64,000 nucleotides of DNA, taken from a virus. Taxonomy: Duplodnaviria > Caudoviricetes. Under the pieces are notes generated by a model. That model worked only from the letters and a program-made list of their open reading frames with translations. It did no database searches and was not told the origin of the DNA. Position numbers and translations under genes: made by a program. This document shows positions 1 through 17,142 of the stretch, piece by piece (the first letter of the stretch is position 1; each line of letters opens with the position of its first letter). Location of the stretch: positions 1-64,000 of IMG/VR virus record IMGVR_UViG_2974779332_000001; one strand, given 5' to 3'.

Positions 1-59
1 GACAGGGACATTACAAGTCTTAACAAGCATTTGACCACCACATTCCAAGCCCTATCAAG

Positions 60-866: not shown

Positions 867-903
867 TCTTCTATACTAGCAAGAGCCTGATAGCTTGTCA
901 ACA

Positions 904-1137: not shown

Positions 1138-1249
1138 GAGTAGAGTCTATCAGTACAAGGAGGCCCTGTCTACCCACCGGGCCATCTGTCCGCCCCGGCC
1201 AAAATCCCCTAAACCCTTTCGGGCCTAGGGGACTCGGACCTTTCCTGGA

Positions 1250-2262
1250 TTAGCTGGCCAGGGCCAGGACCGCCTTACGGATGCGGTTCTTCTCGACGTT
1301 CACGACCGGGTCGAAACCGCTCGCAGCGATGAACAGGTTGTCCACGTTGCCCCCGCGCGGCATACGGTACCAGTCGATACGCTCGGTCAGCGCGTTGAGA
1401 GCACCGGCCATCGTGCCACCCAGAGACTGAGTGGTCTTGGGACCCTCACCCGTGTCGGTGAAGATGCCCATCAGGATGTCCCGCTTGCTCTCCCACTTGA
1501 CCATGGAACCCTTCACGTCCTTCTCAGGACGCGGGTACAGGTCCGCAATCAGAGCGTCGAACTGGTCCTTCGTGCACTTGGCAGCGGCCAGAGCGGTCAT
1601 CTCACGCTCGAACTCATCCGCGTACGCGAACGTGATGTTCAGAGCCTCGCGCGCCTGCGCCATGCGACCCTCAATGGTCTGCGTGTGGCGCATCTTGAAC
1701 TGCTGCTTCACACCGTTACGGAGTGCGAAGTTCAGCGTGTTCTGACACACGACGCGAACCGGAGTGATGGACGCCTGGACGGCAACGGAGCCGTCGTGAG
1801 AGGTGTTGACCAAGAGATACATCTTGGTCACGTCGTTGTCACCGATGACGATGTCACGAGAGATGGACAGAGAACCGAACACCACGCGACCGTCACGGAT
1901 GGAACCAGCCGTCTCCCACGTGCCACCACCCGCGAGGATGCCGTCACCGAAGCCGAACAGCTCCTCATTCTGGACGACCTTGTACCCTCGCCCACGGTGG
2001 CCAGAACGTCGTTCCGACCGTTGAACGGGTTGGTACGGACGACCATGTACGGCTCCGTGACGAAGTCGTAGTTGTCGGAAATCATGCCAAGGATGTCCTT
2101 GACGGATTCCAGTCGAACGTCCCAGCCGTTGAGGTGGGCCAGCGCCAGCATTTCGCTGGTCGTCAGCTCACCCTCGAACACGGTTCCGAGGTTGTGCCAC
2201 GCGGGCTCGTTGCGAGAAGCGAACGCGACCTGACCCTTGGAACCAATCTCAAGACCGTGCAT
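1250..2262 (-). pseudogene. DUF932-family phage/plasmid protein split by a 1-bp frameshift near 1987
   Basis: The N-terminal frame has PAWHNLG..VVRTNP..LATVGE. The other frame continues RYKVVQNEELFGF..WETAGSIRDGRVVF..NTSHDGS..TPVRVVCQNTL. SD GGAGG precedes the ATG at 2262. Confidence 0.8.
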
Positions 2263-2454
2263 TTTTGCCTCCATGGCAGATTGGTGTAAGGGCCGGTTTC
2301 CCTGCCCTTCGATGTCTCTAGTCTAGCAGTAGTCTGGGGGCGATGTCTACCCACCTGGTGTGTCTGCTATGTCCGTTTTGCCCTTTATGTTCCGGCCGCC
2401 CCGGACACACGAAAGCCCCTCCGAAGAGGGGCAGTGTGTCTAACCTACTAGAGA

Positions 2455-2886
2455 TTAGAAGGGCGGCTCGTCGCTGTAGTAGGAACCGGCCGCGTCCAGC
2501 TTCCGGCAGTAGTCGTCCACGATGTCCTTCGTGTCCTTGAGACCGAGACCGGTCATGGCGCGCAGCTCCTTGATGACCGGAATCTTCCGGTCGGAACCGT
2601 GCTTGACCACGATGGAAGCGACGTTGTCGTGGGCGCGCTGTACGGCCATCTCGTAGACCCGACGCAGCTTCGTCAGCTCCCACTCGTCGGGCGTGGGAAC
2701 GGAGACCAGGGACTTGCCGACCTCGTGACCGGACTTGTAGCCCTCGTCGTAGCTGCTGTTGCTGACCTCGTTGACCTTGCTCTGGTGCAGGGCCAGGATG
2801 TCACGGGCCATGCTGACCGCGTCGTTCAGGGAGAGCGTGGAGTCGCTACGCTCGTTCAGGATGTCGATGATGTCGCCGAGGTGCAT
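2455..2886 (-). CDS. Protein with ribosomal L7/L12 C-terminal-like domain
   Basis: KIPVIKELRAMTGLGLKDTKDIVD matches the bL12 CTD motif KIxVIKxVRxxTGLGLKEAKDLVE. SD AAGGAG. Confidence 0.8.
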   Translation of the reverse strand: MHLGDIIDILNERSDSTLSLNDAVSMARDILALHQSKVNEVSNSSYDEGYKSGHEVGKSLVSVPTPDEWELTKLRRVYEMAVQRAHDNVASIVVKHGSDRKIPVIKELRAMTGLGLKDTKDIVDDYCRKLDAAGSYYSDEPPF

Positions 2887-3009
2887 GACCACTCCTTCTC
2901 TTAGGGGCTCCTTGCCCCTTTCGATGTCTCTATCTTAGCAGTACAAGGGCTCTGTGTCTACCGGTCGAAATTTGTCCGGGCCCGACAGGGCCCCGAAGGG
3001 CCCTGTGGA

Positions 3010-3450
3010 TTACCAGCGGACACCCACACCCTCACCGGAGATGGATTCCACGATGTACTTCGCGGTACGCAGGTCCAGGGTGGGAAAGTTCTGTCGCAGG
3101 TGCTTGATGCACCGAATCTTGGTGTTCAGGTCGTAGTGGCTGAACTCACCATTGGCCCAGATGCTCGCACGGGTGACCAACTGCGTGTGGTCCTGCTCAG
3201 CGGTGTAGTTCGCGTTCCGCTGTCCCGAACGTCGCCCCGCCTCGAAACCCTCGTCATAGGCGTGCGTGACGCGCGTGTCGGTCTCCTTACGGGCCAGGTC
3301 CCAGGCGTTGTTTTCCACCTCGATGACCCGCTGCGAGTGCAGGTCTTCCACGATGCGGGCGACCTCGAACGCCTTCTTGAGGCTCATCCGGATGCCGTTG
3401 TTGTGGAAGATGCGAACGAGACGGTCCGAGTCCAGGGTCCACAGCGACAT
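3010..3450 (-). CDS. Paralogue of 2455..2886 with a divergent L7/L12-like domain
   Basis: KIRCIKHLRQNFPTLDLRTAKYIVE, plus the shared N-terminal SLxxAxxxARxxxxLH and YDEG motifs. Confidence 0.7.
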   Translation of the reverse strand: MSLWTLDSDRLVRIFHNNGIRMSLKKAFEVARIVEDLHSQRVIEVENNAWDLARKETDTRVTHAYDEGFEAGRRSGQRNANYTAEQDHTQLVTRASIWANGEFSHYDLNTKIRCIKHLRQNFPTLDLRTAKYIVESISGEGVGVRW

Positions 3451-3584
3451 GATGTCCTCCTGTCTTAGGGAGCTTGTCTCCCTTTCGATGTACTAAGCTT
3501 AGCAGCCATCGGGAGCAGATACAAGCCCAAAGCCAAAGTGTCCGGGCCCGACACGGGCCCCTCATGTCAAGGGGCCCGGCAGGG

Positions 3585-3920
3585 TTAGGGGTTCGTGTTC
3601 CCTCTCTTGAGAATGATTTGTTCGATGACGAATTTGGCATCCATCATTCGATTGAACTCAGCGTCAGAGCGGCTTTCCTTTCTGCCTGCCCATGCATTCA
3701 TGATAGCCACCACGAATGCGAACAGAACATCTTGCACAGGCTCAGGGTAGGTAGTCAGGAGGTAGGCGAATGCATTCACGTCGAATGAACGCTTATCCAT
3801 TTCCTCCATAAGCCTGTTTGCCAGTCGCTCATACGAGCCAGGGCGAGGGTTGACCAGTCGCGCACCCTCATACATGTCAGGCACAATCAGACTGGTCTGA
3901 CGGAAGGGGTCACGTGCCAT
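3585..3920 (-). CDS. Hypothetical protein
   Basis: 111-aa ORF, last gene of the Lsr2 cassette. Confidence 0.75.
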   Translation of the reverse strand: MARDPFRQTSLIVPDMYEGARLVNPRPGSYERLANRLMEEMDKRSFDVNAFAYLLTTYPEPVQDVLFAFVVAIMNAWAGRKESRSDAEFNRMMDAKFVIEQIILKRGNTNP

Positions 3921-4071
3921 CGAAATCCTCTGTTGTACCGTAGCCGTCAGATACGCTCACAGACAGGCCCAGCACCTTTGCCAGAAACTCGGCCGTAGCC
4001 GTAGCAAAGGGCCAGGCCCCATCGTGGGCGTCATCATCAGGAGTCTCAATTTCCAGGATGATGTTCGCCAT
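3910..4071 (-). CDS. Small acidic hypothetical protein (53 aa, not in ORF track)
   Basis: MANIILEIETPDDDAHDGAW...DFDGT*. It fills the gap between its neighbours and overlaps the next start. Confidence 0.65.
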   Translation of the reverse strand: MANIILEIETPDDDAHDGAWPFATATAEFLAKVLGLSVSVSDGYGTTEDFDGT

Positions 4072-4080
4072 GTCCCTATC

Positions 4081-4596
4081 CTATCGCGTGTGAACCTCAA
4101 CGTCCATCCCGAGCACCACGGGGGAGCCGCAGTGGCAGTGAGACAGGGAGTAACCGCACTTGCAGACCTCCCGCTCACTCAGGACGATACGCTTGTTGCC
4201 GTACCAGGCGGTGTACTCCGTACGGCTGGAACGGGTCGGGGCAGCGTGCGGACGCACGTCCTTACCGGTCACCTTGACGTGAACACCCGGCTCAGCGGGC
4301 TTGACGTCCGGGTTGTCCGCCTTGTAAGCGGCCAGCACCTCAGCGGAGAGGCGACCACGGGCGGACACGGTGAGACCCTTGGAAGCGGCCCATGCGCGAA
4401 CGGTCTTGGCATCGAACTGTCCCGCCTTGGGAGCGGAAGCGACGACCTTGCGCGGAGTGGCGTTGGTGTCAGAGAACACCTTGCCCTCACCCTCAGCCTT
4501 GGCAATGGCCGCGTGCGCTTCGGCACTCATCCGGCCACGGGCGTCAGCCTTGGCGAGACCCAGCGAAGCGGCGTAGGCGCGACGGGTCATGTTCAT
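4081..4596 (-). CDS. lsr2: Lsr2-like DNA-binding protein
   Basis: VRAWAASKGLTVSARGRLSAEVLAAY is the Lsr2 C-terminal RGR AT-hook domain. A second degenerate copy (ARGRMSAEA) is at the N-terminus, with a Cys/His-rich tail. Confidence 0.85.
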   Translation of the reverse strand: MNMTRRAYAASLGLAKADARGRMSAEAHAAIAKAEGEGKVFSDTNATPRKVVASAPKAGQFDAKTVRAWAASKGLTVSARGRLSAEVLAAYKADNPDVKPAEPGVHVKVTGKDVRPHAAPTRSSRTEYTAWYGNKRIVLSEREVCKCGYSLSHCHCGSPVVLGMDVEVHTR

Positions 4597-4720
4597 TGTG
4601 GGTTCCTCTCCCTTGGTGATGTCTCTAGTCTAAGGCATGGAAGGGGGCCGCGTCAACACGTCTAAATGTCCGTTTTGCCCCAAATGCCGGTTGTCCGGGG
4701 CGGCCCGAAGGCCCCCGCTG

Positions 4721-5455
4721 TCAAGCCTTACGACGACGGGGAACCTTGGACGCGAAACGAATGTCAGCCTTACCAAAGATGCAAAGGCCGCATGTGAAGC
4801 ACGCACCACCCTTTTCGGTGATAAGGGGAATGCGCTTGGCATTCTCAGGGCAAATAGCGCCAGGCTTGCCAGTCTCGGCAAGCATGAATTCCTTACCCTG
4901 GTCATGCGTTTCTGCCAGATAGGCAAGACGCACAAAGGGGTAAATCTCCTGAGTACCCAACGCAGCCTCTTTGTTCTCACTGTCTACACTCAGGTACACA
5001 GAGAGGTTAGGCACATCTTCCAGATAGGCCACGTACGCGAACGAACGTGTGTAAATCCAGAATTGCACGTCAGGGAATCGCTTGCACGTTTCCGCAAGGG
5101 CGTACGCGTAGTCAGAGGAAAAGATATCCCCATCGGCGTGCCAGCGGAATACCTTACTGATGTTGTGCTTTGCGCATTCCTGCGAGAATTCCGCAATCAT
5201 GTCAGTGAGCAGAGAAATCATCTCACCGATAGTTGCATCCTTCAACAGGTTCCAATTGTGCAATGCCAACTCACGGAATGCCGGATACATCTTTTCCAGC
5301 TTACCGGCATAGCAGACGCCTTCACATACACTTGTTGCGCCGGGGCAAGAATAGACCTTGCCACTGGGCAAAGAAAATGCATTCCTGAGAAGGGACTGAG
5401 TGCCAGCCTTGTTGACACGCGCAGTCGTCTTGCGGTCGTGAGAGCGCTTGAGCAT
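4721..5455 (-). CDS. Gp88-like (radical-SAM-like Fe-S) protein
   Basis: FSLPSG..SCPGATSVCEGVCYA, FRWHADGD, FWIYTRS and a C-terminal CxxCxxC. SD AAAGGA before the ATG at 5455. Confidence 0.7.
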   Translation of the reverse strand: MLKRSHDRKTTARVNKAGTQSLLRNAFSLPSGKVYSCPGATSVCEGVCYAGKLEKMYPAFRELALHNWNLLKDATIGEMISLLTDMIAEFSQECAKHNISKVFRWHADGDIFSSDYAYALAETCKRFPDVQFWIYTRSFAYVAYLEDVPNLSVYLSVDSENKEAALGTQEIYPFVRLAYLAETHDQGKEFMLAETGKPGAICPENAKRIPLITEKGGACFTCGLCIFGKADIRFASKVPRRRKA

Positions 5456-5555
5456 GGCAGTCCTTTCGTTGACGTAAGACGAGTCTAGCAGACATGAGGG
5501 ACGTAAACAAGCCCTCGATATGTCCGATTTGCCCGTTGTCCGTCCCCGACAGGGG

Positions 5556-5750
5556 CTAGAGGATAACGACGGAACGGTGAGAAGCATATGAGATTAGGTT
5601 CTCACGCTCAGTGGCTTCGTTGTAGAAAATCACCATTCGCTTGCCGCTGTAAGAGCCGATGTCACGAACGATGTGACCTTCCATGTAATATCCGCTATCG
5701 AAACGGACGCGCTCGTTGGGCTTGATTTCAGAAAAAGCCTTACGCTGCAT
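5556..5750 (-). CDS. Small hypothetical protein
   Basis: Starts MQRKAFSEIKP after GAGGA and overlaps the stop of the upstream gene. Confidence 0.65.
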   Translation of the reverse strand: MQRKAFSEIKPNERVRFDSGYYMEGHIVRDIGSYSGKRMVIFYNEATERENLISYASHRSVVIL

Positions 5751-6045
5751 TGCGTTCCTCCGAGCTGTAGGGCAGTTCCGTGTTACGAACAATGGTGCCA
5801 AGAGAGACAGCGTTGATTGTCTTGTGACCAAGAATCCAAGCCATCACAACACGATGCTGACCATTGTACACAGTGCCATTCTGAAAGTTGATAGGCATCT
5901 GAATTCCGTCACGCTCGCATGACTCAATGAATTCATCGCTCATCTCAAAGAAAAGCTGAGTGAACAGGTCCATCGTGCTCTGACCTTCCTCGCGGTCTGC
6001 GAAGTCGGCACGGGCAACGATTGCGTCTACACTCAGCTTCCTCAT
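5740..6045 (-). CDS. Minimal ParB/Srx-like domain protein, leaderless
   Basis: ESCERDGIQMPI..VYNGQHRV motif. The ATG is 7 nt from the -10. Confidence 0.7.
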   Translation of the reverse strand: MRKLSVDAIVARADFADREEGQSTMDLFTQLFFEMSDEFIESCERDGIQMPINFQNGTVYNGQHRVVMAWILGHKTINAVSLGTIVRNTELPYSSEERNAA

Positions 6046-6137
6046 GTTGTAGAGTCTAGCAGACATGACAGGCATACACAAGCACCAATTTCTGTCCGGG
6101 CCGGACATGACTAAGGGCCCCCGAAGGGGCCCGGTGG

Positions 6138-6197
6138 TCAGAAGAGAATCAGAAGAATGAACAGGGCTACGATGAGCCACACCCAACCATCACGCAT
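6138..6197 (-). CDS. 19-aa hydrophobic micropeptide
   Basis: MRDGWVWLIVALFILLILF*, with SD GGGAGGTG. It ends just before the terminator. Confidence 0.55.
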   Translation of the reverse strand: MRDGWVWLIVALFILLILF

Positions 6198-6267
6198 TCT
6201 CGCACACCTCCCTGTACCATGCGAAGTGACAGTACAGATAGAAGTGAAGCCATGTTGCGAAAGCCAT
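6190..6267 (-). CDS. 25-aa aromatic-rich micropeptide
   Basis: MAFATWLHFYLYCHFAWYREVCENA*, with SD AGGAG. Confidence 0.5.
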   Translation of the reverse strand: MAFATWLHFYLYCHFAWYREVCENA

Positions 6268-6275
6268 TACTACTC

Positions 6276-6584
6276 CTACTCGAACAGGCAGATTTCTGCC
6301 TCATCGAATTGCACGTACCATTCGGTCGTGTACTCGATGTCTTCAATGTTCAAAAGCCACGCGCACAGAATCCTGTGGTGACCCTCATAGACCTTGTTCT
6401 CATCGGGCTGATACATGATGGGAGTCTGAATCCCATCGGCCTGAATTGATTCAAGGAAGGTAGGGTTACCAATGAAGAGGTCATCGAACTTCTCTTCGAG
6501 CATCTGCCAGGTGGTGTGGCCCTTGGCCTCAGCATCATTGAAGATAGCCGACTCAATCAGCTTCGCAACAGATACCTTGGCCAT
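6276..6584 (-). CDS. Minimal ParB/Srx-like domain protein
   Basis: ESIQADGIQTPI..VYEGHHRI motif. SD AAGGAGG. Confidence 0.75.
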   Translation of the reverse strand: MAKVSVAKLIESAIFNDAEAKGHTTWQMLEEKFDDLFIGNPTFLESIQADGIQTPIMYQPDENKVYEGHHRILCAWLLNIEDIEYTTEWYVQFDEAEICLFE

Positions 6585-6699
6585 GACCCCTCCTTGGCTT
6601 GATAAGACTACTCTACACGACTACAGGGGCTATGTCTAGTGCCGGGCCAAACTGTCCGGGGCGGCCAAAAGGGGCCCCGAAGGGCCCCCAATGGGTTTG

Positions 6700-6972
6700 T
6701 CAGTCCTCGGAAGTGTCCTTGCTGCTGACCGCCTTGCCCTTCTTGAGAAGGGAAGCGTCACCGAGATTGACCTTACGCCGGGGACGCCCGACGTGAACGC
6801 TGGGGAAACGGGACAGAACGTCACGGGCACGGGTCTCGTCGGCTTCCAGGATGTCGAACCGCTGGAACGGAGCCTTAGTGGCCACCTCACCGAACACGAT
6901 GTCCACGCCCTGGACAATCATGGCCACACGGAGGGAGAGAGCGTGACGAACGGGAACGATACCGGCAATCAT
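6700..6972 (-). CDS. Hypothetical basic protein
   Basis: ORF with SD AGGAG, its own promoter (7086-7115) and a downstream TTCG terminator. Confidence 0.65.
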   Translation of the reverse strand: MIAGIVPVRHALSLRVAMIVQGVDIVFGEVATKAPFQRFDILEADETRARDVLSRFPSVHVGRPRRKVNLGDASLLKKGKAVSSKDTSED

Positions 6973-7101
6973 GTGCACTCCTGTGCTAGAAGTAAGCTGG
7001 GGTATTCAGTTATCAGAGACTTTGGCAGGAAGGGAAAAACCTCGTCTTGCGAGGCCCTGTGGCCTGTCCCCTTGTGCTTAGCTAGAGTCTAGCAGGCTGA
7101 C

Positions 7102-7275
7102 CTACTCGCAGTCAACCAGAATCTCCATGTCGTCCAGGTGGGCGTCAGGAGCCGGGTCGAACTCAAGGAACGTGTCCTCGAAGATGACCATCCAGGCGTA
7201 GCCCTCACGGTTCTTCGGGTTGCACTTGCCACGGTGCATGTCACCCATTGCCGCGCCACACTCGATGCACTTCAT
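7102..7275 (-). CDS. Small Cys/His protein
   Basis: MKCIECG...H...C, with SD GGGAGG. Confidence 0.7.
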   Translation of the reverse strand: MKCIECGAAMGDMHRGKCNPKNREGYAWMVIFEDTFLEFDPAPDAHLDDMEILVDCE

Positions 7276-7405
7276 GAGGTTCTTTCCTCCCTCTCGATGT
7301 TCTAAGTCTACACTAGAGATGCGACAGACACAACACCCAATATTCGTTAGGCTTGCTAAGGTGTCCGGGCCCGACACGGGCCCCGAAGGGCCCGGCGGGA
7401 AGAGA

Positions 7406-7690
7406 CTACTTCTTGCCAGCGCGCTTGTTGCTGTGGTTCCCGTTCATCAGGTTGGTGAAGTCCAGAACGATGTTCTGACGGAAGTTCGTTGCGCCGTGGA
7501 ACTTGCCGTCCTGGTCACGGACCACCACACGCACCTCGGTGTTGCCGAGAGCGGCACCCGGAACCTGCCAGGTCTCCAGTCGGATGGAGAAGGTGGACTT
7601 GGAACCCTTGACCTTGAAACCCTCGGTGAGGGTGACGGAGGAGACGACCTTGTGAGCGGCGTCGGTGACCTTGGCGAGGGAAACGGCCAT
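7406..7690 (-). CDS. Hypothetical protein
   Basis: 94-aa ORF, SD GAGGAG, in its own cassette. Confidence 0.8.
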   Translation of the reverse strand: MAVSLAKVTDAAHKVVSSVTLTEGFKVKGSKSTFSIRLETWQVPGAALGNTEVRVVVRDQDGKFHGATNFRQNIVLDFTNLMNGNHSNKRAGKK

Positions 7691-7834
7691 TTGAAGCTCC
7701 TCAGAGTCTCGCTCGGGGGTTCCTTCCCCCTTGCTGATAGCTAAAGTCTACACGACTCCAGAGACAAGTACAAGCCCTGAATTATGTCCGTTTTGTCGTC
7801 CGGGCCGGACAAGGGGCCCGAAGGCCCCAAGCCG

Positions 7835-8116
7835 TTAGCCCTCCTGCTCAGCCTTGACCTTTTGCAGGTGCGAAAGGTCTTCCAGGGTGCGAGAGATGGC
7901 GTTCAGCGTCTCATACGCTTCCGCCTTGCTGAAACCGATGTATCCACGGTCACCCGTGCCGGGAGCAGCCGAACCACCGTCAACGAACAGACGGTGAGCA
8001 ATGCCAGCCGAAGGGGTGCCCTCCTGGTAGTTCAGTTCGAGAGCGAAGCCCATGCCCTCCCAGTTGCGCTGGTAGCGCTGGATGGCGTTGAGAACGTCAG
8101 TCTTGGTAACCGTCAT
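7835..8116 (-). CDS. Hypothetical protein
   Basis: MTVTKTDV start after GAGGA, in its own cassette. Confidence 0.8.
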   Translation of the reverse strand: MTVTKTDVLNAIQRYQRNWEGMGFALELNYQEGTPSAGIAHRLFVDGGSAAPGTGDRGYIGFSKAEAYETLNAISRTLEDLSHLQKVKAEQEG

Positions 8117-8219
8117 TTCGGGTTCCTCTCCCTCGGTGTAAGACGAGTCTATCAGAGTCCAAGAGCCATTACAACCCACCGGCCAAAATGTCCGGGCCGG
8201 ACCCCGAAGGGCCCGACAC

Positions 8220-8543
8220 TCAGGTCAGCTTAGCCAGAAGCTTGCTGATTTCCTGCCGGAGTTCGCTCTGAGGGCGACGACCACGCTCCGCCTTGAGCGC
8301 ACGCTCAAAGTAGGCACGAAGTTCGGTCTTGTTGTACGGACCTGCGCACTCATCGGTGTAGTTGATGTCCTCGAACGGCTGAGGGCAGGAGCAACCGGAG
8401 TCGCTTGCCACAAAGTACCGTCCTCGGGCCTCCTTCCACACCTGAGTGATGTTGAACTGCCACTGTTCCTGGTCCCAGTCGAAGGAACCCACGTACTCAA
8501 GGTTGGTGAGCAGGACACGGCCGGGCTTAGAGAGGTTTGCCAT
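8220..8543 (-). CDS. Hypothetical phage protein (DSGCSC motif)
   Basis: 107-aa ORF, SD AAGGAG, contains ASDSGCSCPQPFED. Confidence 0.8.
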   Translation of the reverse strand: MANLSKPGRVLLTNLEYVGSFDWDQEQWQFNITQVWKEARGRYFVASDSGCSCPQPFEDINYTDECAGPYNKTELRAYFERALKAERGRRPQSELRQEISKLLAKLT

Positions 8544-8552
8544 GATGTCTCC

Positions 8553-8696
8553 TTAGACGTCTCTACGCTGTACCTTACCACACTTGGAACACTGGCGCAT
8601 CTGAATCAGCGCCTTCCATGTGCCGAGTCTGGGGAAGATGGGGGAATCGAACGTTCCCAACATCGTCTTCCAGTCAGACCATTTGTGGATGTGCAT
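8553..8696 (-). CDS. 47-aa putative Zn-binding peptide (not in ORF track)
   Basis: MHIHKWSDW...RQCSKCGKVQRRDV*, with SD GAGGAGG. Confidence 0.7.
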   Translation of the reverse strand: MHIHKWSDWKTMLGTFDSPIFPRLGTWKALIQMRQCSKCGKVQRRDV

Positions 8697-8805
8697 CCGG
8701 CCCTCCTCGATTTCTTAGTCATAGTCTACACGACCAGATTTTTAGTCGCAAGCCCATTTTTCAAGATTTTTAGTCCGGGGCGGACAGGGCCGAAGCCCCT
8801 TCCGC

Positions 8806-9117
8806 TCACTCCCAGGGCCGGTAGTCAGACCAGCTCGCACCCTCGCGGTTTTCGATGAGGATTTCCACGGTGTCCCCCAGACGGTGATTCACGCTGTACA
8901 GGGAACGATTTGAACCCTGGTAGCGCCTCTGAGTCTTGGCCCATTCGACCGTCCGCTCAGCCTGCCTATGGGAACGGTGAGGCCATGCCTCGATGTTCTC
9001 ACCGTAGTTGAACCACCATCCACCCTCTTCCGACCCTCCACAGGCCCGGTCGATAAGGTAGACATTCACCCAGTGCTTGTTACGCCGACGCTGACCCATA
9101 CGCAGACCCTTGGCCAT
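8806..9117 (-). CDS. Hypothetical protein
   Basis: MAKGLRMG start after GGGAGG, in its own cassette. Confidence 0.8.
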   Translation of the reverse strand: MAKGLRMGQRRRNKHWVNVYLIDRACGGSEEGGWWFNYGENIEAWPHRSHRQAERTVEWAKTQRRYQGSNRSLYSVNHRLGDTVEILIENREGASWSDYRPWE

Positions 9118-9211
9118 GATGTTCCTCCCTTGTCGGTGAGACCAGTCTAGCACCCCGTAATTGGAGATGCAACATGTCTGTAAGGATGGATTGTCATTGT
9201 CCGACCCGGAC

Positions 9212-9515
9212 AAAAAATTCACCTACAAATTCACCCCTGTTTCGAAGGAATTCCCGTAGAAAAACCTTGAAAACAGGGGTGAATTTATTTTGGGCCTTAT
9301 TTTCAGCCGATTTCGACCGTTTCATCCTTGCCTTTTCCGCAAAGGCAGTATTTCGAATGTGTGGCCGAAACAGGCCGAAGGCCCTTTTCGTTGTAGCGGA
9401 AAAGGAGATTTGACAGAAGGGACGAGTTGAAAACCGGAGTTTTCGAGTGAATCCCGTCCCTTTCCAGCAAAAGGGACATGCTGTGGAATCGAACCTGAGA
9501 AACAGCCTTTTTCCG
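9212..9515. other. Non-coding phased A-tract DNA with a 16-bp inverted repeat
   Basis: A/T tracts recur roughly every 10 bp for 300 bp. AAATTCACCCCTGTTT (9227) pairs with AAACAGGGGTGAATTT (ends 9286). Confidence 0.75.
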
Positions 9516-9533
9516 CATCATGTCCCCTTTGGG

Positions 9534-9680
9534 TCAGCCGAGTTCGGACATGTGCGCGTATGCGTCCTCGGTACCGAAGTCAACGGTACGGTCCGCATCC
9601 CGCACGGTGGAGACAGGCAGGGTCATGGTCGTGAACACGCCAGCGTCCACAGCCTGCTCAAGAAGGTCACGAAGGTCCAT
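9534..9680 (-). CDS. Small hypothetical protein
   Basis: MDLRDLLEQ..., SD GAAGGA, promoter at 9715-9743. Confidence 0.65.
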   Translation of the reverse strand: MDLRDLLEQAVDAGVFTTMTLPVSTVRDADRTVDFGTEDAYAHMSELG

Positions 9681-9789
9681 GGTGTGTACTTCCTTCCGTC
9701 TTGGTGATAGCTCAAGTCTAGCGTATGGGTAGGGTGGATGCAAGCCCAACATCTCCGGGATTTTTCAGCCCTATCGTACACGCGCGGGG

Positions 9790-9980
9790 GAAATGTGGGG
9801 AATGTACGTAATGCCCCGTAAAAGGGGTCTATATAGGTATGCCCTATATGGGCGGTATGTACTATATGGGTAGGTATGTACCCATATGCCCCATATGTAC
9901 CTATATGGGTGGGTATGTCCTGAATGTCCGTTTTGTCCACCCCAGATTTGGGGGTGTCCGATTTGCCCCATATGTCGGTC
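9790..9980. repeat. Degenerate 9-10 bp tandem repeat tract
   Basis: ATG recurs at 9839, 9848, 9857, 9866, 9876, 9886, 9895, 9905, 9915 and 9924. CTATATGGG(N1-2)GGTATGT occurs three times. Confidence 0.8.
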
Positions 9981-10088
9981 CGCCCCGGACGTTACCAAGT
10001 CTTTACCTAAAAGACTGCTGAATCTGGGGTTTAGGGCCCGGTGTCCGGGTAGGATGTAGGCATAGCCACTACAGACCAGGGAGACACG

Positions 10089-10526
10089 ATGAACGCCACC
10101 ACCACTCACCAGTGCCGCTACAACAACGAGACTGCCGTTAACGCGCGTATCCGCCGTCAGGTGCTCGCTACGGTGCTGTACCTGGCACAGCTTACGGGCC
10201 ACAGTGACGGGGCCACGTGGGCAACGTGCGTGGGGTGTGGGGAGCGTAGCCACGTGGGCGGTACGCCTAGGGCCATGGACACGTTCAACCTGGGCCACGT
10301 GCTGGCAGACGCTGAAGGTGGCATGTACTGCCCTTGCAACCTGTTGCCTCTGTGCCGTCAGTGCAACGCTGACATGGGTAAGGAAACCCTTACTGATGTA
10401 CTCATTCCGGTTTATGACAACCGAGAGTGCTGGGACGGTAAGCTCATGGCCGACCCTGGCACCGTGGCCGCCAAGCCTGAGAGCAACCGGGGACGGGCCC
10501 GCTGGAACGCCCCTGCTAGCGTCTGA
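10089..10526 (+). CDS. HNH endonuclease
   Basis: CVGCG...LGHVLADAEGG...NLLPLCRQCNADMG. SD AGGGAG. Confidence 0.85.
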   Translation: MNATTTHQCRYNNETAVNARIRRQVLATVLYLAQLTGHSDGATWATCVGCGERSHVGGTPRAMDTFNLGHVLADAEGGMYCPCNLLPLCRQCNADMGKETLTDVLIPVYDNRECWDGKLMADPGTVAAKPESNRGRARWNAPASV

Positions 10527-10540
10527 GACGCTGTGAATGT

Positions 10541-10572
10541 GCCCCCTAGGGTAGTTGCCTAGGGGGCTATTT
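10541..10572 (+). terminator. Intrinsic terminator
   Basis: GCCCCCTAGG...CCTAGGGGGC followed by TATTT. Confidence 0.7.
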
Positions 10573-10751
10573 CATGCCCTCAGAACGGCACACAGGGCTT
10601 TTGAAAAGCGTTTTCATCTGGCCTGGGACCTTCTGCGGAACCTTCCCCGGACAGGTTTGTCAAGGGTTATGGGCGCACTATCCAAATTGTTATTTAACTA
10701 TGCGAAGCATGTATCATACATCACAAAAAATTACTAACATTTGGATTTTGA

Positions 10752-10991
10752 TTAAGGTAACGAATTGATAACGTCCGCCTCGGACAAGCCAACAACATGG
10801 CCGCAGGATTCAAAGCCGATATGCGCTGCATGCTCGAAGCAGATTTCGGTTGTTGTCCATATGGTTGTTGGTTCTGTGCCACAAAATAGGCAGTTGGGAA
10901 GCCCTAGTTCTGCCTTTTGAAGGATTTCGTAATCCTGACAGAAGAACAGAAATTGATTTCTTCCTATATCACTGTCTGTCTTGTCACACAT
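10752..10991 (-). CDS. Hypothetical Cys-rich protein
   Basis: CLFCG...CFEH. The start overlaps the upstream stop. Confidence 0.55.
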   Translation of the reverse strand: MCDKTDSDIGRNQFLFFCQDYEILQKAELGLPNCLFCGTEPTTIWTTTEICFEHAAHIGFESCGHVVGLSEADVINSLP

Positions 10992-11214: not shown

Positions 11215-11341
11215 TGTCGTCTACCTCTATTACTATGCACATACCTTCTTCTGCGTCAAAGCAGTCTATGTACACATCTCGCACCGGGCCGATTACGTCC
11301 TTGGTTCCTATTTGAACTTCGTAATCAGGACAGTTCTTCAT
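11207..11341 (-). CDS. 44-aa hypothetical protein (not in ORF track)
   Basis: MKNCPDYEVQIG...EVDDSE*. It fills the gap between genes. Confidence 0.55.
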   Translation of the reverse strand: MKNCPDYEVQIGTKDVIGPVRDVYIDCFDAEEGMCIVIEVDDSE

Positions 11342-11354
11342 TCTCTCTATGAGT

Positions 11355-12044
11355 TCATGTACTTTCATTGAAGGGCCTCATAGCTACCGGCCAAATTGGC
11401 ACGGTTAGGTCTCGAACTGCCTGGGCGTAATTCTGAATTTCTAGCTGCGCCTTGTGCTCAAGACGCTCCTTGAGGAAATGCAGAACGGCCGCCAGACTTG
11501 TCGTCCAACGCCAGCGAACATACATACCATATGCAGGTAGGAATAGTCTTGCCTGTTCCGGGGCTAGTCCACTATCCAATGCTTGATTATATAGTGATTC
11601 ACCTTGGGCCAGGAATTCCTTTAGCATGTCGGTATATTGTCTTGAAGTCATGGGGTCAGCGTTATCTCCACTACCCTGCTTCTTGTTTGCCGGGGCCATT
11701 CTCCATTCATCAGGAATGTGATATACAGGCTCCTCGGTTACATACCGTCTTGATGACTCGTTCCATCCAATTTGGTCATCAAGATGGGTACTGGCAACAG
11801 TGTACTTCCACCACTGCCGGGCCACAAATAGTGGCGCATATACTTCAAACGTCAGCGCAACATGACGAAAAGGGCTGTATTCATTGTTACGAATTAGGTA
11901 ATTCAACAGACTCTCGTCACGGTCGCTGAATTCCTGACTTTCCTTGGCGTAGGAAACACGTGCAGCATTTACAATGGACAAATCGGAGCCCATGTGGTCA
12001 ACCAGCCGAACGTATCCTTGGTCAAGAACGTCTATTTTTGTCAA
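11355..12044 (-). CDS. thyX: Flavin-dependent thymidylate synthase
   Basis: IVNAARVSY, SPFRH, NESSRRY, PEQARLFLP and AQLEI motifs. Confidence 0.95.
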   Translation of the reverse strand: MTKIDVLDQGYVRLVDHMGSDLSIVNAARVSYAKESQEFSDRDESLLNYLIRNNEYSPFRHVALTFEVYAPLFVARQWWKYTVASTHLDDQIGWNESSRRYVTEEPVYHIPDEWRMAPANKKQGSGDNADPMTSRQYTDMLKEFLAQGESLYNQALDSGLAPEQARLFLPAYGMYVRWRWTTSLAAVLHFLKERLEHKAQLEIQNYAQAVRDLTVPIWPVAMRPFNEST

Positions 12045-12504
12045 GATAATCGATTGCCTTTCTCAAATATTCTGAATTGTCTCGGAAGTATCCAAGACCT
12101 ACATTACATCTGGCACACAAAATGCCACGGACACACTTTCCACAAAGACCTCTGTCCTTATTGCAGCAAGACCTATCATGGTCAATGACAAGTCTTCTCA
12201 ACTTGCCCTTTAGCATGACCGTCTCGTCTTCACCACAAATAGCACAGACCCAATTCTGAGCCTCTAGCATGTCATTGTACTGGTCTACAGAAATTCCCAT
12301 TCGAGGAATGTCTAGTGCCGCGCCATTTAGACGTCTCTTCTCAGCCACTGCGGCCAGAATCTTTTCTTTATTGCGCTCGTAATAGTCCTCATCATTTACT
12401 GATGCACAGCATTTGCAGAATGACTTAAGTCCATCCTTCTTTTGCTTGTCCTTGTAAAAGTCAGAATTCTCCTTATCGAGACCGCACTTAGTGCATCTCT
12501 TCAT
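12022..12504 (-). CDS. Recombination endonuclease VII-family nuclease
   Basis: CAICG...LVIDHD...VRGILCARCNVGLGYFRDN, plus an N-terminal CxxC..CxxC. Leaderless start. Confidence 0.9.
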   Translation of the reverse strand: MKRCTKCGLDKENSDFYKDKQKKDGLKSFCKCCASVNDEDYYERNKEKILAAVAEKRRLNGAALDIPRMGISVDQYNDMLEAQNWVCAICGEDETVMLKGKLRRLVIDHDRSCCNKDRGLCGKCVRGILCARCNVGLGYFRDNSEYLRKAIDYLDKNRRS

Positions 12505-13141: not shown

Positions 13142-13280
13142 TTGCTATCAGCCATTCCTGTAGGGCGTATATCTCGGTCGCTATCTGCTTACCGCGCGGA
13201 GTGCTCCTGTGCTTCAAGTATTCGACCTTGAGCTTAGCAAGTCGCTTCTCTGCTTCGGCCTTGTTCTTAGGGGTACTCAT
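13122..13280 (-). CDS. 52-aa hypothetical protein (not in ORF track)
   Basis: MSTPKNKAEAEKRLAKLK..., with an ATGA overlap with the upstream gene. Confidence 0.65.
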   Translation of the reverse strand: MSTPKNKAEAEKRLAKLKVEYLKHRSTPRGKQIATEIYALQEWLIANDRQGR

Positions 13281-13597
13281 ATGTTATTCCTGTCAAGGAT
13301 ACCGTGTACATAGTCGGCATCTATATCGTCGTAGTTAGACAGCATTCTTAGTTCTGCTGTCGCTTCCTTGTACCGGCGATTTTCTGACAGATAGTTGTCA
13401 GCATCATTAGCCCACCGGTAGGCATCTTTGCGAAGTGCTAGGAACTTCTCTCGGGGAATCTCTTCATCGGGAAGGATATCAAATTCAACCCATACTGAAT
13501 ACTCCTCTTCTGTCATTCCTAGAAACTCGTGGAGTGACATTTTTGTGTCACTGTCATGCCACTTGTCCACGAGGTCTTCTAGTTGTCCTCTGTTCAT
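13277..13597 (-). CDS. Hypothetical protein
   Basis: 106 aa, contains SLHEFLGMTEEEY. SD GAGGA. Confidence 0.8.
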   Translation of the reverse strand: MNRGQLEDLVDKWHDSDTKMSLHEFLGMTEEEYSVWVEFDILPDEEIPREKFLALRKDAYRWANDADNYLSENRRYKEATAELRMLSNYDDIDADYVHGILDRNNI

Positions 13598-13995
13598 GTC
13601 CTCAGTTTGTCACGCGCCAGGGACATTGTCAAGACGTGACACTGCCTTGTTCACCGTATTGAGAGGAACGTCTGTCCCCTTGATGTCACAAATCTGCTTG
13701 TGAAGTTCTTTTCTGTCAGTGACACCCTTGTCCCATAGCTCTCTGACCAGGGCGGACACTGATTTGTCCTTACTTGTCACGGACGGATTTGTCACTGTCT
13801 TTGTCCGTGTCACCGGGACATTGGTGACAGTTTTGTCCGTGACAGGGACATCTGGAGTTGTCACCTTGAATGTCCTGTCACTTGTCTTGTCACTCTTGTC
13901 CTTCGTCTTCTTTCTGTCCAGAGGTTGTCCTGTCACATTTGTCACTGCCTCATTGAGACGGAAGAAGACAACGTCCTTGAATCCACCAAATGTCT
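13505..13995. repeat. Dense TGTC/GACA motif array
   Basis: About 40 TGTC or GACA tetramers by hand count in ~490 bp, versus about 4 expected. Mostly TGTCAC or TGTCC, in both orientations. Confidence 0.9.
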
Positions 13996-14467
13996 TGCCG
14001 GGGAAAATAAGCCAGCTAATCTTACCAAACACTGGCATTCTCTTCGGCACAAGTCCATTGGCGCGCATCTCGCTTCGGTGCACGAAGCGTAGATAAAGCT
14101 CGAAAAGGATTCCGGCAATAACTGGTGGCGCTCCAAAAAGCACCATTCCAGGAATGCCATAGGACAGCAGCATGGCATGTTCTACGTTGAGGTATACAGA
14201 CGCTCCCACGAAGAGATACGTCGCTAGTTTTGTTGCTAGGCCAGAATCTTCTGTTCTGGCGTACTTGCTGGCAAGGTCAGCAACAAACAAAGCCGCTCCA
14301 TCGAATGCCGCGCTGACGCCAATAGCAAGTATCTGTGGGACTCCATAAAAAGTTACTGCCAAGGAATAGAGTGACCACCAACTAAGGGCCAGGGCTACGA
14401 TGAGAACGACTCCGAATGAGATTGAACCTCGCCAATCAAGAACTCTCTTGAAATTTGGCTTGTTCAC
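13610..14467 (-). CDS. DUF2637/SpdB-like membrane protein with a putative C-terminal HTH
   Basis: Four hydrophobic helices, a Thr/Lys/Val/Asp-rich linker and a C-terminal SVSALVRELWDKG...LNTVNKAVSRL. SD AAGGAG. Confidence 0.7.
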   Translation of the reverse strand: MNKPNFKRVLDWRGSISFGVVLIVALALSWWSLYSLAVTFYGVPQILAIGVSAAFDGAALFVADLASKYARTEDSGLATKLATYLFVGASVYLNVEHAMLLSYGIPGMVLFGAPPVIAGILFELYLRFVHRSEMRANGLVPKRMPVFGKISWLIFPGKTFGGFKDVVFFRLNEAVTNVTGQPLDRKKTKDKSDKTSDRTFKVTTPDVPVTDKTVTNVPVTRTKTVTNPSVTSKDKSVSALVRELWDKGVTDRKELHKQICDIKGTDVPLNTVNKAVSRLDNVPGA

Positions 14468-14520
14468 TGTTCTCCTTAGACAAAAGTGCAGGCGGCCCTG
14501 ATGGACCGCCTGCTATTCAA

Positions 14521-14922
14521 TTATTTTGTTGACTCATTGAGCATCCAGAGCCACTTATCGACGCCTCGCTTTACTTCGATGAGAACATCTTGTGTTGCAA
14601 GGTCATCTGTTATGTTCAGTATAGCAGCGTTCAAAGTCCCAGTCAATCCCCTTAGAGAACTGATAAGACCTATAAGAACCTGCTGAAAACTGACAGACTC
14701 TCCGGACATTTCGTAGCTTACCTTGGGCGCAAGATATAGGTCAATTGCCCTGGCTCGTTCCGCAATGAGGTCAGCATATTCAGTTATATCGGAATCAAGC
14801 TTGTCAAGCTCGGGGTGAAAGAAGAAGAATTCCTTACCCCTGAGATTCCAATGACTCTCCTTGACGACCAAGGAGAGTATCAGAAGCCATTCTAGAGCTT
14901 CCTCCATTTTTGCTTCTAGCAC
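14521..14922 (-). CDS. dps: Dps/ferritin-like protein
   Basis: HWNLRGxxFxxxH, DLIAER and DxATxDxL..DKWLWML motifs. Confidence 0.85.
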   Translation of the reverse strand: MLEAKMEEALEWLLILSLVVKESHWNLRGKEFFFFHPELDKLDSDITEYADLIAERARAIDLYLAPKVSYEMSGESVSFQQVLIGLISSLRGLTGTLNAAILNITDDLATQDVLIEVKRGVDKWLWMLNESTK

Positions 14923-15133
14923 GCTCCACCTCCTTAATCGCTGATTTCACGTTGTGATGCATCTCTAGACCGGGCTTTATGTAGATATCACATATTGAAC
15001 ACCACAGTCTGAGGTCGGTAGATGCATCAGGCTTTAGTCTCACTATCAAGTGATTCCCGCAATCGGGACACTCTAGTGCCGGGGCCAGATTCTCTCTAAC
15101 CAGCCGGATGTATTTATGAAAATCCTGCCACAT
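14834..15133 (-). CDS. Zn-ribbon protein, leaderless
   Basis: CPDCG...CSIC. TACACT-6nt-ATG. Confidence 0.7.
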   Translation of the reverse strand: MWQDFHKYIRLVRENLAPALECPDCGNHLIVRLKPDASTDLRLWCSICDIYIKPGLEMHHNVKSAIKEVERARSKNGGSSRMASDTLLGRQGESLESQG

Positions 15134-15145
15134 GCATTCAGTGTA

Positions 15146-15355
15146 TCACGCATTACGTAGATTTGTCAGTACCGCTTCAACTCCGTGCACTGCATCCTCT
15201 ACTGCATTACGTAGATTGTTTACTTCGTTCTCATAAGCATTGTCCGCCTCCACAGCGTCCTGCTTTATCTCATCAATCAGTTCTTCAACTGTTGACTGCT
15301 TCATTCCATAGGCAACAGCCAGAACAATAAGCTCTGTCTCTGCTCTAGACTTCAC
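15146..15355 (-). CDS. Hypothetical protein
   Basis: GTG start after AAGGAG. Acidic and helical. Confidence 0.65.
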   Translation of the reverse strand: MKSRAETELIVLAVAYGMKQSTVEELIDEIKQDAVEADNAYENEVNNLRNAVEDAVHGVEAVLTNLRNA

Positions 15356-15797
15356 GAAGCTTCTCCTTGATTCTTGTCGTGGACATTCCAGTACGCCTGT
15401 CAATGTAAATCAGAATCAGGTCGTTCTCGTCAAGCCATTCCTTCGTGAACTTCATCTGACCGTAGTAATCTCTACCAGCCCAATCTGAACCGATGGCAAT
15501 TACCTCAATCATGTGATGTTTGCATGCCTCATAGATTGTTTCCTTGGAATCTTCCTCACCAATGTTCGGAATAACAAGGTCAACATACTTACATGCCTCA
15601 AGGACGAGCTTGCGTTCTCTGAATGACTGTACTGGCTTATTATTCTTGAATCTCTCAATGAACTCATCTGTATTCAGAGCGACAACCACAGCACCATCGC
15701 CTGCAAGTCGCTTACAGCTTCTCAGAAGCTCTACATGACCTTCATGAAACAGGTCAAACGTTCCTCCAGTATAGATGTTAGGCAAGACGCTCAACAT
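15345..15797 (-). CDS. Cytidylyltransferase-like nucleotidyltransferase (TagD family)
   Basis: YTGGTFDLFHEGH (HxGH), GSDW and MSTTRIK motifs. Confidence 0.9.
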   Translation of the reverse strand: MLSVLPNIYTGGTFDLFHEGHVELLRSCKRLAGDGAVVVALNTDEFIERFKNNKPVQSFRERKLVLEACKYVDLVIPNIGEEDSKETIYEACKHHMIEVIAIGSDWAGRDYYGQMKFTKEWLDENDLILIYIDRRTGMSTTRIKEKLREV

Positions 15798-16431
15798 CCT
15801 CTGCGAGGTGATACCTTACATACTCATTGAAGGCCCTTTCGTCGTTTTCCCATACCGGGCCTGCATTGGCCTCTTCGTATGTCTTGTCGTGCTCTGCCTT
15901 TCCAGCATAAGGGTGCAGATGCTCGATGTCAACATGCTCAAGGTAGGTGAGGGTTCCTAGGGCCTCTCCCAGAGCCTTCCAGTAGTTGTCAGCAAATAGG
16001 TGAATGAAAGTAGGTGGAACCATGTACCCAAGTGTTTTTACAATACGAGAGTCAAGGAATACACCCGTTGGGAGTCCTGCTCTCTGATGGCCATCATTCG
16101 CATAGGCCACCAGGTTCTTCTTGTAATGGTTCTGAATCTCTACATCCCAACGATAGGTGTTGGGCATGGTATCATCACCGAGAAATCCAATAATGTCGTA
16201 AGCCTCTGCATAATCCTTGGCCACTTCATTAAGGGTTCCCACCAAACGCTTACGTGTACCTACACGCAAAGGTAGATGGGTGTGCTGATATTCAATCAGC
16301 TTTGGGTCGTCATTGTCCACGCAGAAAATGGTATCCACTTCTGCTGTTGTGTAGATTGCGTGATAAAGCCTCTCGGCTTTATCTGGCCTGCCCCTTGTAG
16401 GAACAATGACCAGAATCTTTGGTCGTCTCAT
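15778..16431 (-). CDS. Glycosyltransferase (GT-A fold, GT2-like)
   Basis: VIVPTRGRP, FLGDD, HLFADN and IEHLHP motifs. Confidence 0.8.
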   Translation of the reverse strand: MRRPKILVIVPTRGRPDKAERLYHAIYTTAEVDTIFCVDNDDPKLIEYQHTHLPLRVGTRKRLVGTLNEVAKDYAEAYDIIGFLGDDTMPNTYRWDVEIQNHYKKNLVAYANDGHQRAGLPTGVFLDSRIVKTLGYMVPPTFIHLFADNYWKALGEALGTLTYLEHVDIEHLHPYAGKAEHDKTYEEANAGPVWENDERAFNEYVRYHLAEDVERLA

Positions 16432-17054
16432 GCGTAATCCGTTTCCTGTACGATGCTCTTTTCAAGACCTGTGATATATACAAGGTCTGCCCATGTAGGC
16501 TTTGAGCAATATCCATTTAGCTCACCGGCCTTAGCGTACATATAAAGGGTGTCATCGTACTGACCGGTCAATCCATCTCTTTCGAGTAGAGCTTTTATCT
16601 TCCGGGCTCCATTCTCAGAATACATCATGGAGACACCACCGTATCTCTGATAAACCTTTGTAAGAGTTCTACTCACACCATCTCGACGTTCATCAAACAT
16701 CTTGTCGGAGTCTCTTGGAATAAAGAGTGAGAAGAAATCCCAGTCGTCAGGTAGCTCAGCTACACGCTGCTCGAAATTGAGCTGGAAATCCTCATGCAGC
16801 AAAGCATCATCTTCAAAGGTTACGATGGGTGCCTTTTCAATAGCATTCAGTACGCTGTACCAAATACCCAAATGGCCCAGACGTGCATCCCAATTTACTG
16901 CATAGGGGTGCTTTGCCTGGGCCTCTCTTAGCTCGTCAATGTCGCGCCCATCTACTGTAGAAACGCGAACATGCTCCCAGCCTTCTAGCTTTGGGAGCAT
17001 CTTTTGAATGTAGTGCAGACGAGAATAGTCAATGCTGAATATTGTGTATTTCAT
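16428..17054 (-). CDS. Glycosyltransferase (GT25-like)
   Basis: TVDGR, GHLGIWYS and FEDDA motifs. Start moved to MKYTIF because the longer ORF overlaps the tRNA. Confidence 0.75.
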   Translation of the reverse strand: MKYTIFSIDYSRLHYIQKMLPKLEGWEHVRVSTVDGRDIDELREAQAKHPYAVNWDARLGHLGIWYSVLNAIEKAPIVTFEDDALLHEDFQLNFEQRVAELPDDWDFFSLFIPRDSDKMFDERRDGVSRTLTKVYQRYGGVSMMYSENGARKIKALLERDGLTGQYDDTLYMYAKAGELNGYCSKPTWADLVYITGLEKSIVQETDYA

Positions 17055-17071
17055 ATCTCTATTTCTGTAAG

Positions 17072-17142
17072 AGCCTGGCAAGAGAATCGAACTCTTGACT
17101 CTTCATTACGAAAGAAGTGCGTTTCCACTACGCCAGCCAGGC
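17072..17142 (-). tRNA. tRNA-Thr(CGT)
   Basis: Acceptor stem GCCTGGC/GCCAGGC, D arm GCGT/ACGC, anticodon loop TT-CGT-AA, T arm AAGAG-TTCGATT-CTCTT. No encoded CCA. Confidence 0.85.

Follow-up and report, generated by a model that had tools for sequence, protein, structure and literature searches.

In Streptomyces, Spd proteins together with the TraB translocase form the apparatus that spreads plasmids (PMC4447253; Thoma et al. 2015). SpdB2 of plasmid pSVH1 is reported in that study to bind double-stranded DNA and to act with TraB in intramycelial spreading, and putative SpdB2 homologues were noted on the actinophages phiC31 and VWB, where the authors suggested that they might aid the spread of phage DNA. 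TraB, according to the same source, reads arrays of 8-bp, plasmid-specific clt repeats. SpdA2 of pIJ101 is reported to bind a palindrome (sps) that lies inside its own coding region, and synonymous removal of the palindrome lowers plasmid stability (PMC4170104; Thoma et al. 2014). Here we describe a phage locus that can be compared with these systems. It lies in the first 64,000 bases of IMG/VR virus record IMGVR_UViG_2974779332_000001 (the whole stretch that was analysed, hereafter "the window"), where the gene of a membrane protein of the DUF2637 family, with a helix-turn-helix (HTH)-like tail, carries an array of TGTC/GACA words. The array is selected at the DNA level, and it probably provides docking sites for the HTH-like tail encoded by the same gene, an arrangement that would amount to a self-addressed membrane tether for phage DNA.

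The record is 133,090 bp long and has direct terminal repeats. Its nearest named relatives are cluster-BE-type Streptomyces phages (Stanwilliamsviridae, Boydwoodruffvirinae, genus Samistivirus), with 81-88% DNA identity across 12.5-15.5 kb; the phage is a large member of this cluster-BE type and the window is its left 64 kb. The locus consists of the following features.

13511..13994, both orientations (30:10): array 1, 40 copies of the core TGTC/GACA (tetramer counts, codon resampling, whole-genome scan)
13610..14467, minus strand: gene of the 285-residue membrane-anchored protein with the HTH-like tail, DUF2637 family (open reading frame, Pfam PF10935, phrog_10376)
13922..14467, minus strand: residues 1-182, four long predicted membrane helices and two shorter ones (AlphaFold2 model)
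13772..13921, minus strand: predicted disordered linker, about residues 183-232, the densest part of the array (predicted local distance difference test score, pLDDT, below 50 at 186-230; codon resampling)
13613..13771, minus strand: predicted C-terminal three-helix HTH-like tail, residues 233-285 (separate domain model)

The locus resembles SpdA2 and sps in that a DNA-binding protein of a Streptomyces mobile element, putative in the present case, has its sites in its own coding region. In the reported system the sites can be removed synonymously, and loss of either sites or protein lowers segregational stability, a feature of SpdA2. The sps half-site, CGTCAC/GTGACG, also resembles CGTGACA, the array word of Karimacvirus relatives of the present phage. 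The differences are considerable: sps is described as a 12-bp palindrome in one to three copies, whereas what we found is an array of about 40 non-palindromic words of 6-7 bp at irregular spacing. SpdA proteins have 117-163 residues, an N-terminal DNA-binding part and no described membrane anchor, whereas the present protein has four membrane helices and a C-terminal tail; the two proteins were compared by description only. SpdB2 is reported to be an integral membrane protein with four transmembrane helices, which the four long helices of the AlphaFold2 model match; it acts with TraB, and the present phage likewise has an FtsK/TraB-like protein. Oligomerisation and pore formation are further features of SpdB2-type spread proteins.

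An earlier reading of this DNA (hereafter the original prediction) had placed about 40 TGTC/GACA tetramers in 13505-13995, and we counted exactly 40 (30 TGTC and 10 GACA on the plus strand). They number 81 per kb, compared with 9.8 in the remaining window, so that the enrichment, put at about tenfold in that reading, measures about eightfold. Of all sliding 500-nt segments in the 64 kb, the one beginning at 13501 ranks first; the segments average 5.2 tetramers, with a standard deviation of 3.5. The array word is TGTC[A/C][C/T], which on the coding strand reads G[T/G]GACA (GTGACA or GGACA). TGTCAC and GTGACA together occur 16 times, as do TGTCC and GGACA, and in coding-strand orientation the base that precedes GACA is T in 20 of the 40 sites and G in 16. 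Both strands and all three frames contain sites (the original prediction had spoken of both orientations and different frames), and these are spaced irregularly, 5-35 nt apart. A tandem-repeat origin was rejected: Tandem Repeats Finder (TRF) detects just one 24-nt stretch.

The enrichment survived codon-preserving shuffling. Two controls were used, one in which the protein was held fixed and codons were redrawn from genome usage (5000 resamplings), and one in which synonymous codons were permuted within the segment (5000 permutations). Codons 158-285 contain 32 sites, where 9.0 ± 2.3 are expected from genome codon usage, a 3.5-fold excess, and 17.3 ± 2.2 from within-segment permutation; none of the 5000 draws reached the observed count in either control. 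By codon resampling, codons 158-235 hold 23 sites against an expected 6.0 ± 1.9 and codons 236-285 hold 9 against 3.0 ± 1.3 (0/5000 in each case), and the membrane half of the gene holds 1 against 2.2. The array was also said to continue past the stop codon into the downstream gene. That spill is real, with 11 sites in the 106-residue downstream gene against 5.5 ± 1.6 expected (8/5000), but it is weaker: the first 31 codons hold 6 sites against 2.8 ± 1.2, a value reached in 35/5000 draws by usage resampling and in 2458/5000 by within-segment permutation.

These controls bear on the view that the words have no DNA function, their density being a by-product of the V/T/D/K-rich linker, of codon habits or of a history of slippage. 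The linker is indeed of low complexity and rich in VT, DK and TD, and amino-acid content explains part of the excess, as the expectations of 9 sites for codons 158-285 and 2.2 for the membrane half make plain. The 3.5-fold excess nevertheless persists when the protein sequence is fixed, the sites occupy all frames and both strands, there is no tandem structure by TRF, and sites are also present in the structured tail, beyond the stop codon and, at a second locus, in unrelated genes and intergenic DNA.

A whole-genome scan found one other comparable cluster, at 78.1-79.4 kb of the genome, 65 kb from array 1 and outside the window. One part of this array 2 lies in a DUF3307 gene on the plus strand (genome 78129-78206; 8 TGTC and 1 GACA) and another in a PhoD-like hydrolase gene, also on the plus strand (genome 79167-79383). 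By codon resampling the DUF3307 gene holds 8 sites against 1.5 expected (z 6.5) and the hydrolase gene 19 against 6.2 (z 6.6), or 25 against 7.2 (z 8.9) in the relative Jay2Jay. The PhoD-like phosphatase gene (genome 78455-80410) is present in some genera only, and in Samistivirus the part coding for its N-terminal domain bears array 2. Jay2Jay, Coruscant and LukeCage each have exactly two dense regions, at syntenic positions. LukeCage lacks the hydrolase, and its array 2 is intergenic, following the DUF3307 gene; Tomas has a hydrolase orthologue (79% identical by tblastn) with 4 sites where 4.1 are expected, and no second array. This natural contrast, taken with the codon test, shows that the words are laid on the DNA and are not required by the proteins, and the Tomas orthologue, free of surplus sites at similar protein sequence, is a further point against the by-product view. 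Codon resampling and the contrast at the hydrolase and DUF3307 genes thus bear out the claim of selection at the DNA level. The proposal of a one-gene system holds in part: an array does lie inside the gene of the candidate binder, but the system is not strictly one of a single gene, because the same word forms a further array in other genes, at a distance of 65 kb.

All nine Boydwoodruffvirinae relatives examined carry 31-41 sites per ~580 nt, in a linker that diverges by many substitutions and indels. Nineteen loci encode the same tail. The family alignment recovered 20 loci from IMG/VR, and 18 of these have this tail, several of which duplicate named phages already counted; the nineteenth locus is a prophage island. 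In all 19 a GACA-core array occupies the 3' half of the gene, with a density of 32-78 sites per kb where the flanks have 3.6-11.5. These loci span 38-87% protein identity and 34-54% GC, and retention of the same core from one end of this GC range to the other likewise speaks against a by-product of codon habits. It is true that conservation of single sites does not significantly exceed that of the remaining synonymous positions; on balance we regard the absence of any DNA function as extremely unlikely.

The island is a 32-kb, ~50%-GC segment (~50-82 kb) of a 72%-GC Streptomyces contig. It carries a terminase, a portal and a repressor-like XRE-TPR gene and is therefore a prophage; its membrane-HTH gene, 45% identical to the present one, has a GGACAG-type array. 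Each clade has its own bases around the GACA core, with [G/A][G/T]GACA in Samistivirus, CGTGACA in Karimacvirus and AGACA-type words in small viral contigs. Within a genome, arrays 1 and 2 share these bases. GACA is preceded by T or G where helix 3 of the tail opens N-T, and by A where it opens G-T. Homologues with unrelated tails have unrelated words: a 72%-GC viral contig has 13 copies of CGCATCA at the same place, and a 94-kb Streptomyces plasmid has 39 copies of GAGAC(C), in all frames and on both strands, 7 of them beyond the stop codon.

The same is seen in the two published satellites of BE phages. MulchRoom has its own membrane-HTH gene (11331-12287) with 26 copies of CGACA, and MiniFlayer has one (14392-15336) with 16 copies of TGCGAA, or 22 of TCGCA. 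In the helpers the words are GTGACA and GGACA for MulchMansion (17 and 18 copies) and GTGACA for MindFlayer (24 copies), and there is no overlap of words between satellites and helpers in either direction. Homologues with different tails therefore carry different words (CGCATCA, GAGACC, TGCGAA, CGACA), the behaviour expected under the original prediction, and the 19 same-tail loci keep the GACA core. Judged by comparison of sequences, the array is conserved and its word co-varies with the tail, to the point of orthogonality between helper and satellite.

The trait is restricted in distribution. Thirty chromosomal DUF2637 paralogues from 41 Streptomyces genomes, examined with the same statistic, had no comparable cluster, so the array is ruled out as a general DUF2637 trait and is assigned to the branch with an HTH-like tail, which comprises phages, plasmids and satellites. 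In a search of genome contigs the family alignment as query gave two loci and a single cellular homologue as query gave no confirmed locus; scanning one complete high-GC Streptomyces genome for the pattern was not informative.

If the words are read by a protein of the phage, a second candidate reader is a 615-residue FtsK/SpoIIIE/TraB-like ATPase with membrane helices (genome 74162-76009; phrog_12531), and the arrays might then be clt-like loading sites for this ATPase and not for the DUF2637 protein. The gene lies 2.1-3.2 kb upstream of array 2 and is present in five of five BE-type genomes checked. TGTC is moreover the commoner orientation on the plus strand in most array parts, whatever the direction of the gene, with part 3 of Jay2Jay as an exception (10:15). 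TraB and clt, as reported, also share with our proposal a membrane-associated protein, a DNA-reading C-terminal part and short, element-specific repeats that act in cis in DNA movement. However, TraB is an FtsK-like motor and the present protein has no ATPase part, and here, unlike in TraB/clt, the word follows the tail of the DUF2637 protein and not the FtsK-like gene. Private arrays occur where repeats read by an element's own FtsK-like translocase would not be expected, namely in the prophage, on whose contig tblastn found no FtsK-like homologue, and in MulchRoom and MiniFlayer, in which no FtsK-like gene is annotated. A helper pump could not read the satellite arrays by the same specificity, since the satellite words differ from those of the helper. 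Array 1 is 60 kb from the FtsK-like gene, Tomas has that gene and lacks the second array, and no Pfam domain was found in the last 120 residues of the ATPase. Reading of the arrays by the ATPase is accordingly quite unlikely in our estimate.

Another possibility is that the arrays are replication-origin iterons and that the membrane-HTH protein organises an origin to which it binds. Lambda O binds iterons inside the O gene, and Rep proteins of satellites bind element-specific hexamer iterons that adjoin rep; the present short repeats are similarly element-specific and lie in or beside the gene of the would-be binder. The prophage copy is in the early region next to the repressor-like gene, and the two arrays of each BE genome could correspond to two origins. 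Both satellites, too, keep the module although they are reported to have no obvious replicase (PMC10690885). Against this, the arrays are not regular iterons beside an AT-rich stretch: GC content is 0.43-0.53 across 12.8-15.0 kb with no AT-rich stretch adjoining the array, and the irregular 5-35 nt spacing, mixed orientation and ~40 copies are unlike classical iterons, which come in small numbers at even intervals. No helicase, primase or AAA+ part can be recognised in the protein, and the cumulative GC-skew minimum and strand switch are at 16-18.8 kb, away from the array. We consider an origin unlikely.

A dense array of short sites could also titrate or recruit an abundant host factor, such as a regulator or nucleoid protein with a short TGTC-type site. 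TTGTCC, in 8 copies, and a single TTGTCCAC resemble the Streptomyces DnaA box. The rest of that box is not preferred after TGTCC, and the DnaA reading was therefore rejected. Elements that infect the same hosts differ in their words, as do a helper and its satellite in one cell, and the word tracks the element's own tail; a host sponge or platform is very unlikely on this evidence.

The protein regarded here as the putative binder slightly exceeds the gathering cut-off of Pfam PF10935 (DUF2637) over residues 21-165 (26.6 bits against 22.8; E 6.2e-6) and matches phrog_10376 with E 2.6e-144. PF10935 is listed as precomputed for most homologues, and relatives are annotated as "membrane protein" or "DUF2637 domain-containing protein". 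The full-length AlphaFold2 model, built from 35 homologous sequences, has helices at residues 6-39, 45-69, 76-100, 104-136, 146-154 and 156-179 (pLDDT of the block 59-84), and the tail modelled alone has helices at 7-16, 22-33 and 39-50 of a 55-residue model (mean pLDDT 83.4). The layout foreseen for the protein, four transmembrane helices, a linker and a C-terminal HTH-like domain, is reproduced by these models, in which the linker is disordered and the tail consists of three helices. Of the DUF2637/Spd-type description, the DUF2637 assignment stands, and resemblance to the named Spd protein compared did not reach significance: a Pfam search with pIJ101 SpdB gave no hit at E <= 0.01, BLASTP gave E 1.6, and hhalign against the family profile gave a probability of 0.6% (E 0.093). 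PhiC31 gp25 has the same layout and an hhalign probability of 0.3% against that profile.

We propose that the array is a cis-acting DNA element overlaid on coding sequence, whose ~40 sites would dock the C-terminal HTH-like tail. The four helices would hold the protein in the cytoplasmic membrane, the flexible linker of ~50 residues would let the tail reach DNA, and many protein copies gathered on the closely packed sites would anchor the phage genome there. A second anchoring point would be the array at 78.1-79.4 kb, and most BE phages would have two. Every element of the family would have its own pair of word and tail, so that a helper and a satellite sharing a cell would be kept apart. That the tail binds the array, that the protein is in the membrane and what the tether is for are what we infer from these sequences and models. 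The original prediction had raised positioning, spreading through hyphae or exclusion. We take the purpose to be most likely either the organisation of replication or segregation at the membrane or, in the manner of the Spd proteins of Streptomyces plasmids, the handing over of DNA to a septal translocation apparatus. We also entertain, as a doubtful extension, an orthogonal system of address labels shared by these phages, their satellites and related prophages and plasmids, in which each replicon bears tens of copies of a private 6-7-bp word in the gene of the protein that reads it, is docked at the membrane and is then pumped through hyphal cross-walls by a TraB/FtsK-like pump, so that a virulent phage and its satellite would spread between mycelial compartments as naked DNA, without virions.

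Precedents exist for parts of this scheme. In phage phi29, the membrane protein p16.7 combines an N-terminal anchor with a DNA-binding domain at its C-terminus and keeps replicating phage DNA membrane-bound; it is not known to bind with sequence specificity or to have a dedicated site array. Plasmid centromeres (parC/ParR, omega heptad arrays) are dense direct and inverted repeats of 6-11 bp, to which a small DNA-binding domain binds cooperatively, with element-specific words. The present system would differ from them in having no known partner ATPase, a putative binder that is membrane-anchored according to the models, and arrays in coding DNA. No account of such arrays was found in the open-access literature covered. 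Relative to the known case of a self-encoded cis site and binder on a Streptomyces mobile element, what is new is the membrane-anchored putative binder, the ~40 copies and the element-private words.

Several observations weigh against the tether reading. Among synonymous positions, 29% are invariant inside sites (n = 17) and 18% elsewhere (n = 167), a difference that is not significant (Fisher p = 0.33). Single sites turn over; site-by-site conservation was therefore discarded as support, and the argument rests on density. The classes in which word and tail co-vary are few and track phylogeny. No clear array was found in three homologues (Muntaha, locus L077 and a 34-kb linear Streptomyces plasmid), and phiC31 gp25 has a weak array signal only. 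The DNA binding of SpdB2 is reported as non-specific, and that report describes no site array, unlike what is proposed here. Structure comparison of the tail is also indistinct. A Foldseek search with the tail model returned nothing at E <= 0.001 (best E 1.8); the best VIA match, with Z 6.4, is the HTH of a small terminase, and many chains of HTH or winged-helix regulators score about 5, values in the common range and below a distinctive level. For the tail alone no Pfam family was found, and its profile search against the PDB gave chance-level rows only. A weak Foldseek match (E 3.2) is to the DNA-binding domain of StbA of R388. Because these fold matches are generic, "HTH-like" is fair as a description and is not proven membership.

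If the tail binds the array, the pair would be a compact means of fixing chosen DNA to a membrane, available in many natural, non-overlapping versions. It would give a handle on an old question in Streptomyces, namely how plasmid DNA, and possibly phage DNA, moves or stays put in a multicellular mycelium, and would bear on the role of the poorly understood Spd-type proteins. For helper-satellite biology it is of interest that satellites reported to lack an obvious replicase still keep this module, with private words. The locus is in addition a clear case of a second code written over protein-coding sequence, a point to bear in mind when such genomes are annotated or synonymously recoded.

The neighbourhood of the gene belongs to a leftward block at ~9.8-18.2 kb and includes the following features.

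13277..13597, minus strand: 106-residue downstream gene, phrog_12828, whose first third carries the tail end of the array (open reading frame, phrog match)
14488..14513, minus strand: terminator-like hairpin between the ferritin/Dps-like gene and the membrane-HTH gene, an 11-pair stem (9 G-C) and a T run (consensus match only)
14521..14922, minus strand: upstream ferritin/Dps-like "DNA binding protein" gene (Pfam Ferritin E 1.5e-8, phrog_3636)

None of these genes is a constant companion of the array. The downstream gene is replaced by another in Karimacvirus relatives and so is not a constant array partner, and the ferritin/Dps-like gene, absent beside the homologues in prophage and satellites, is likewise context. 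Across eight sampled loci, the sole gene common to all within ±3 kb is the membrane-HTH gene itself. The same leftward block contains ThyX, a nucleotidyltransferase and two glycosyltransferase-like genes (window 11355-12044 and 15345-17081), which may hint at modification of DNA or nucleotides.

A 15-bp palindromic box, TGTCCGGGCCGGACA, occurs with near variants in ~17 places at 0.7-10.8 kb, almost only in the terminal repeat and about once per small gene there (for example at window 758-772 and 6093-6107); strand-matches at up to 3 mismatches number 30 against 1.4 expected. Its outer half-sites in the present phage are the GGACA word, and the original prediction had tied this TGTCC..GGACA box to the array. 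The box itself is there, but relatives do not show the array word in its outer bases. They keep the inner CCGGGSCGG core with other outer bases (GACC..GGTC in Tomas, variable ends in LukeCage), and Coruscant has no such box. The boxes were therefore rejected as sites of the membrane-HTH protein: since the box ends of Tomas and LukeCage depart from the array word although both keep GACA arrays, and Coruscant is boxless, the likeness is unproven and probably coincidental. The box could be an operator or a terminator.

The terminal repeat spans 1-10714, and its right copy begins at 122377. It ends 2.8 kb from array 1, which rules the array out as a repeat boundary or packaging site. The sequence GACAGGGACAT is present at 1, 13841 and 122377, so the match reported between position 13841 and bases 1-11 of the window is correct, but it is not conserved: the genome ends of Jay2Jay, Tomas, Coruscant and LukeCage all differ (4/4), and a functional meaning of the match was discarded on that ground. 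The repeat boundaries themselves (window 10675-10754, genome 122337-122416) are conserved across genera. In four of five genomes the repeat ends in GCGAAGCATGTAT followed by CATACAT, with a variant in Coruscant. Ahead of the right copy stands GTGTAATG, or GTGTAATA in Coruscant; conservation does not extend to the repeat's own first bases. On the 34-kb linear Streptomyces plasmid, the array-less DUF2637 gene adjoins a GntR regulator and a weak FtsK_SpoIIIE match, and ten copies of TGCCCCA lie within ~350 nt (541-900), ~3.8 kb upstream of it.

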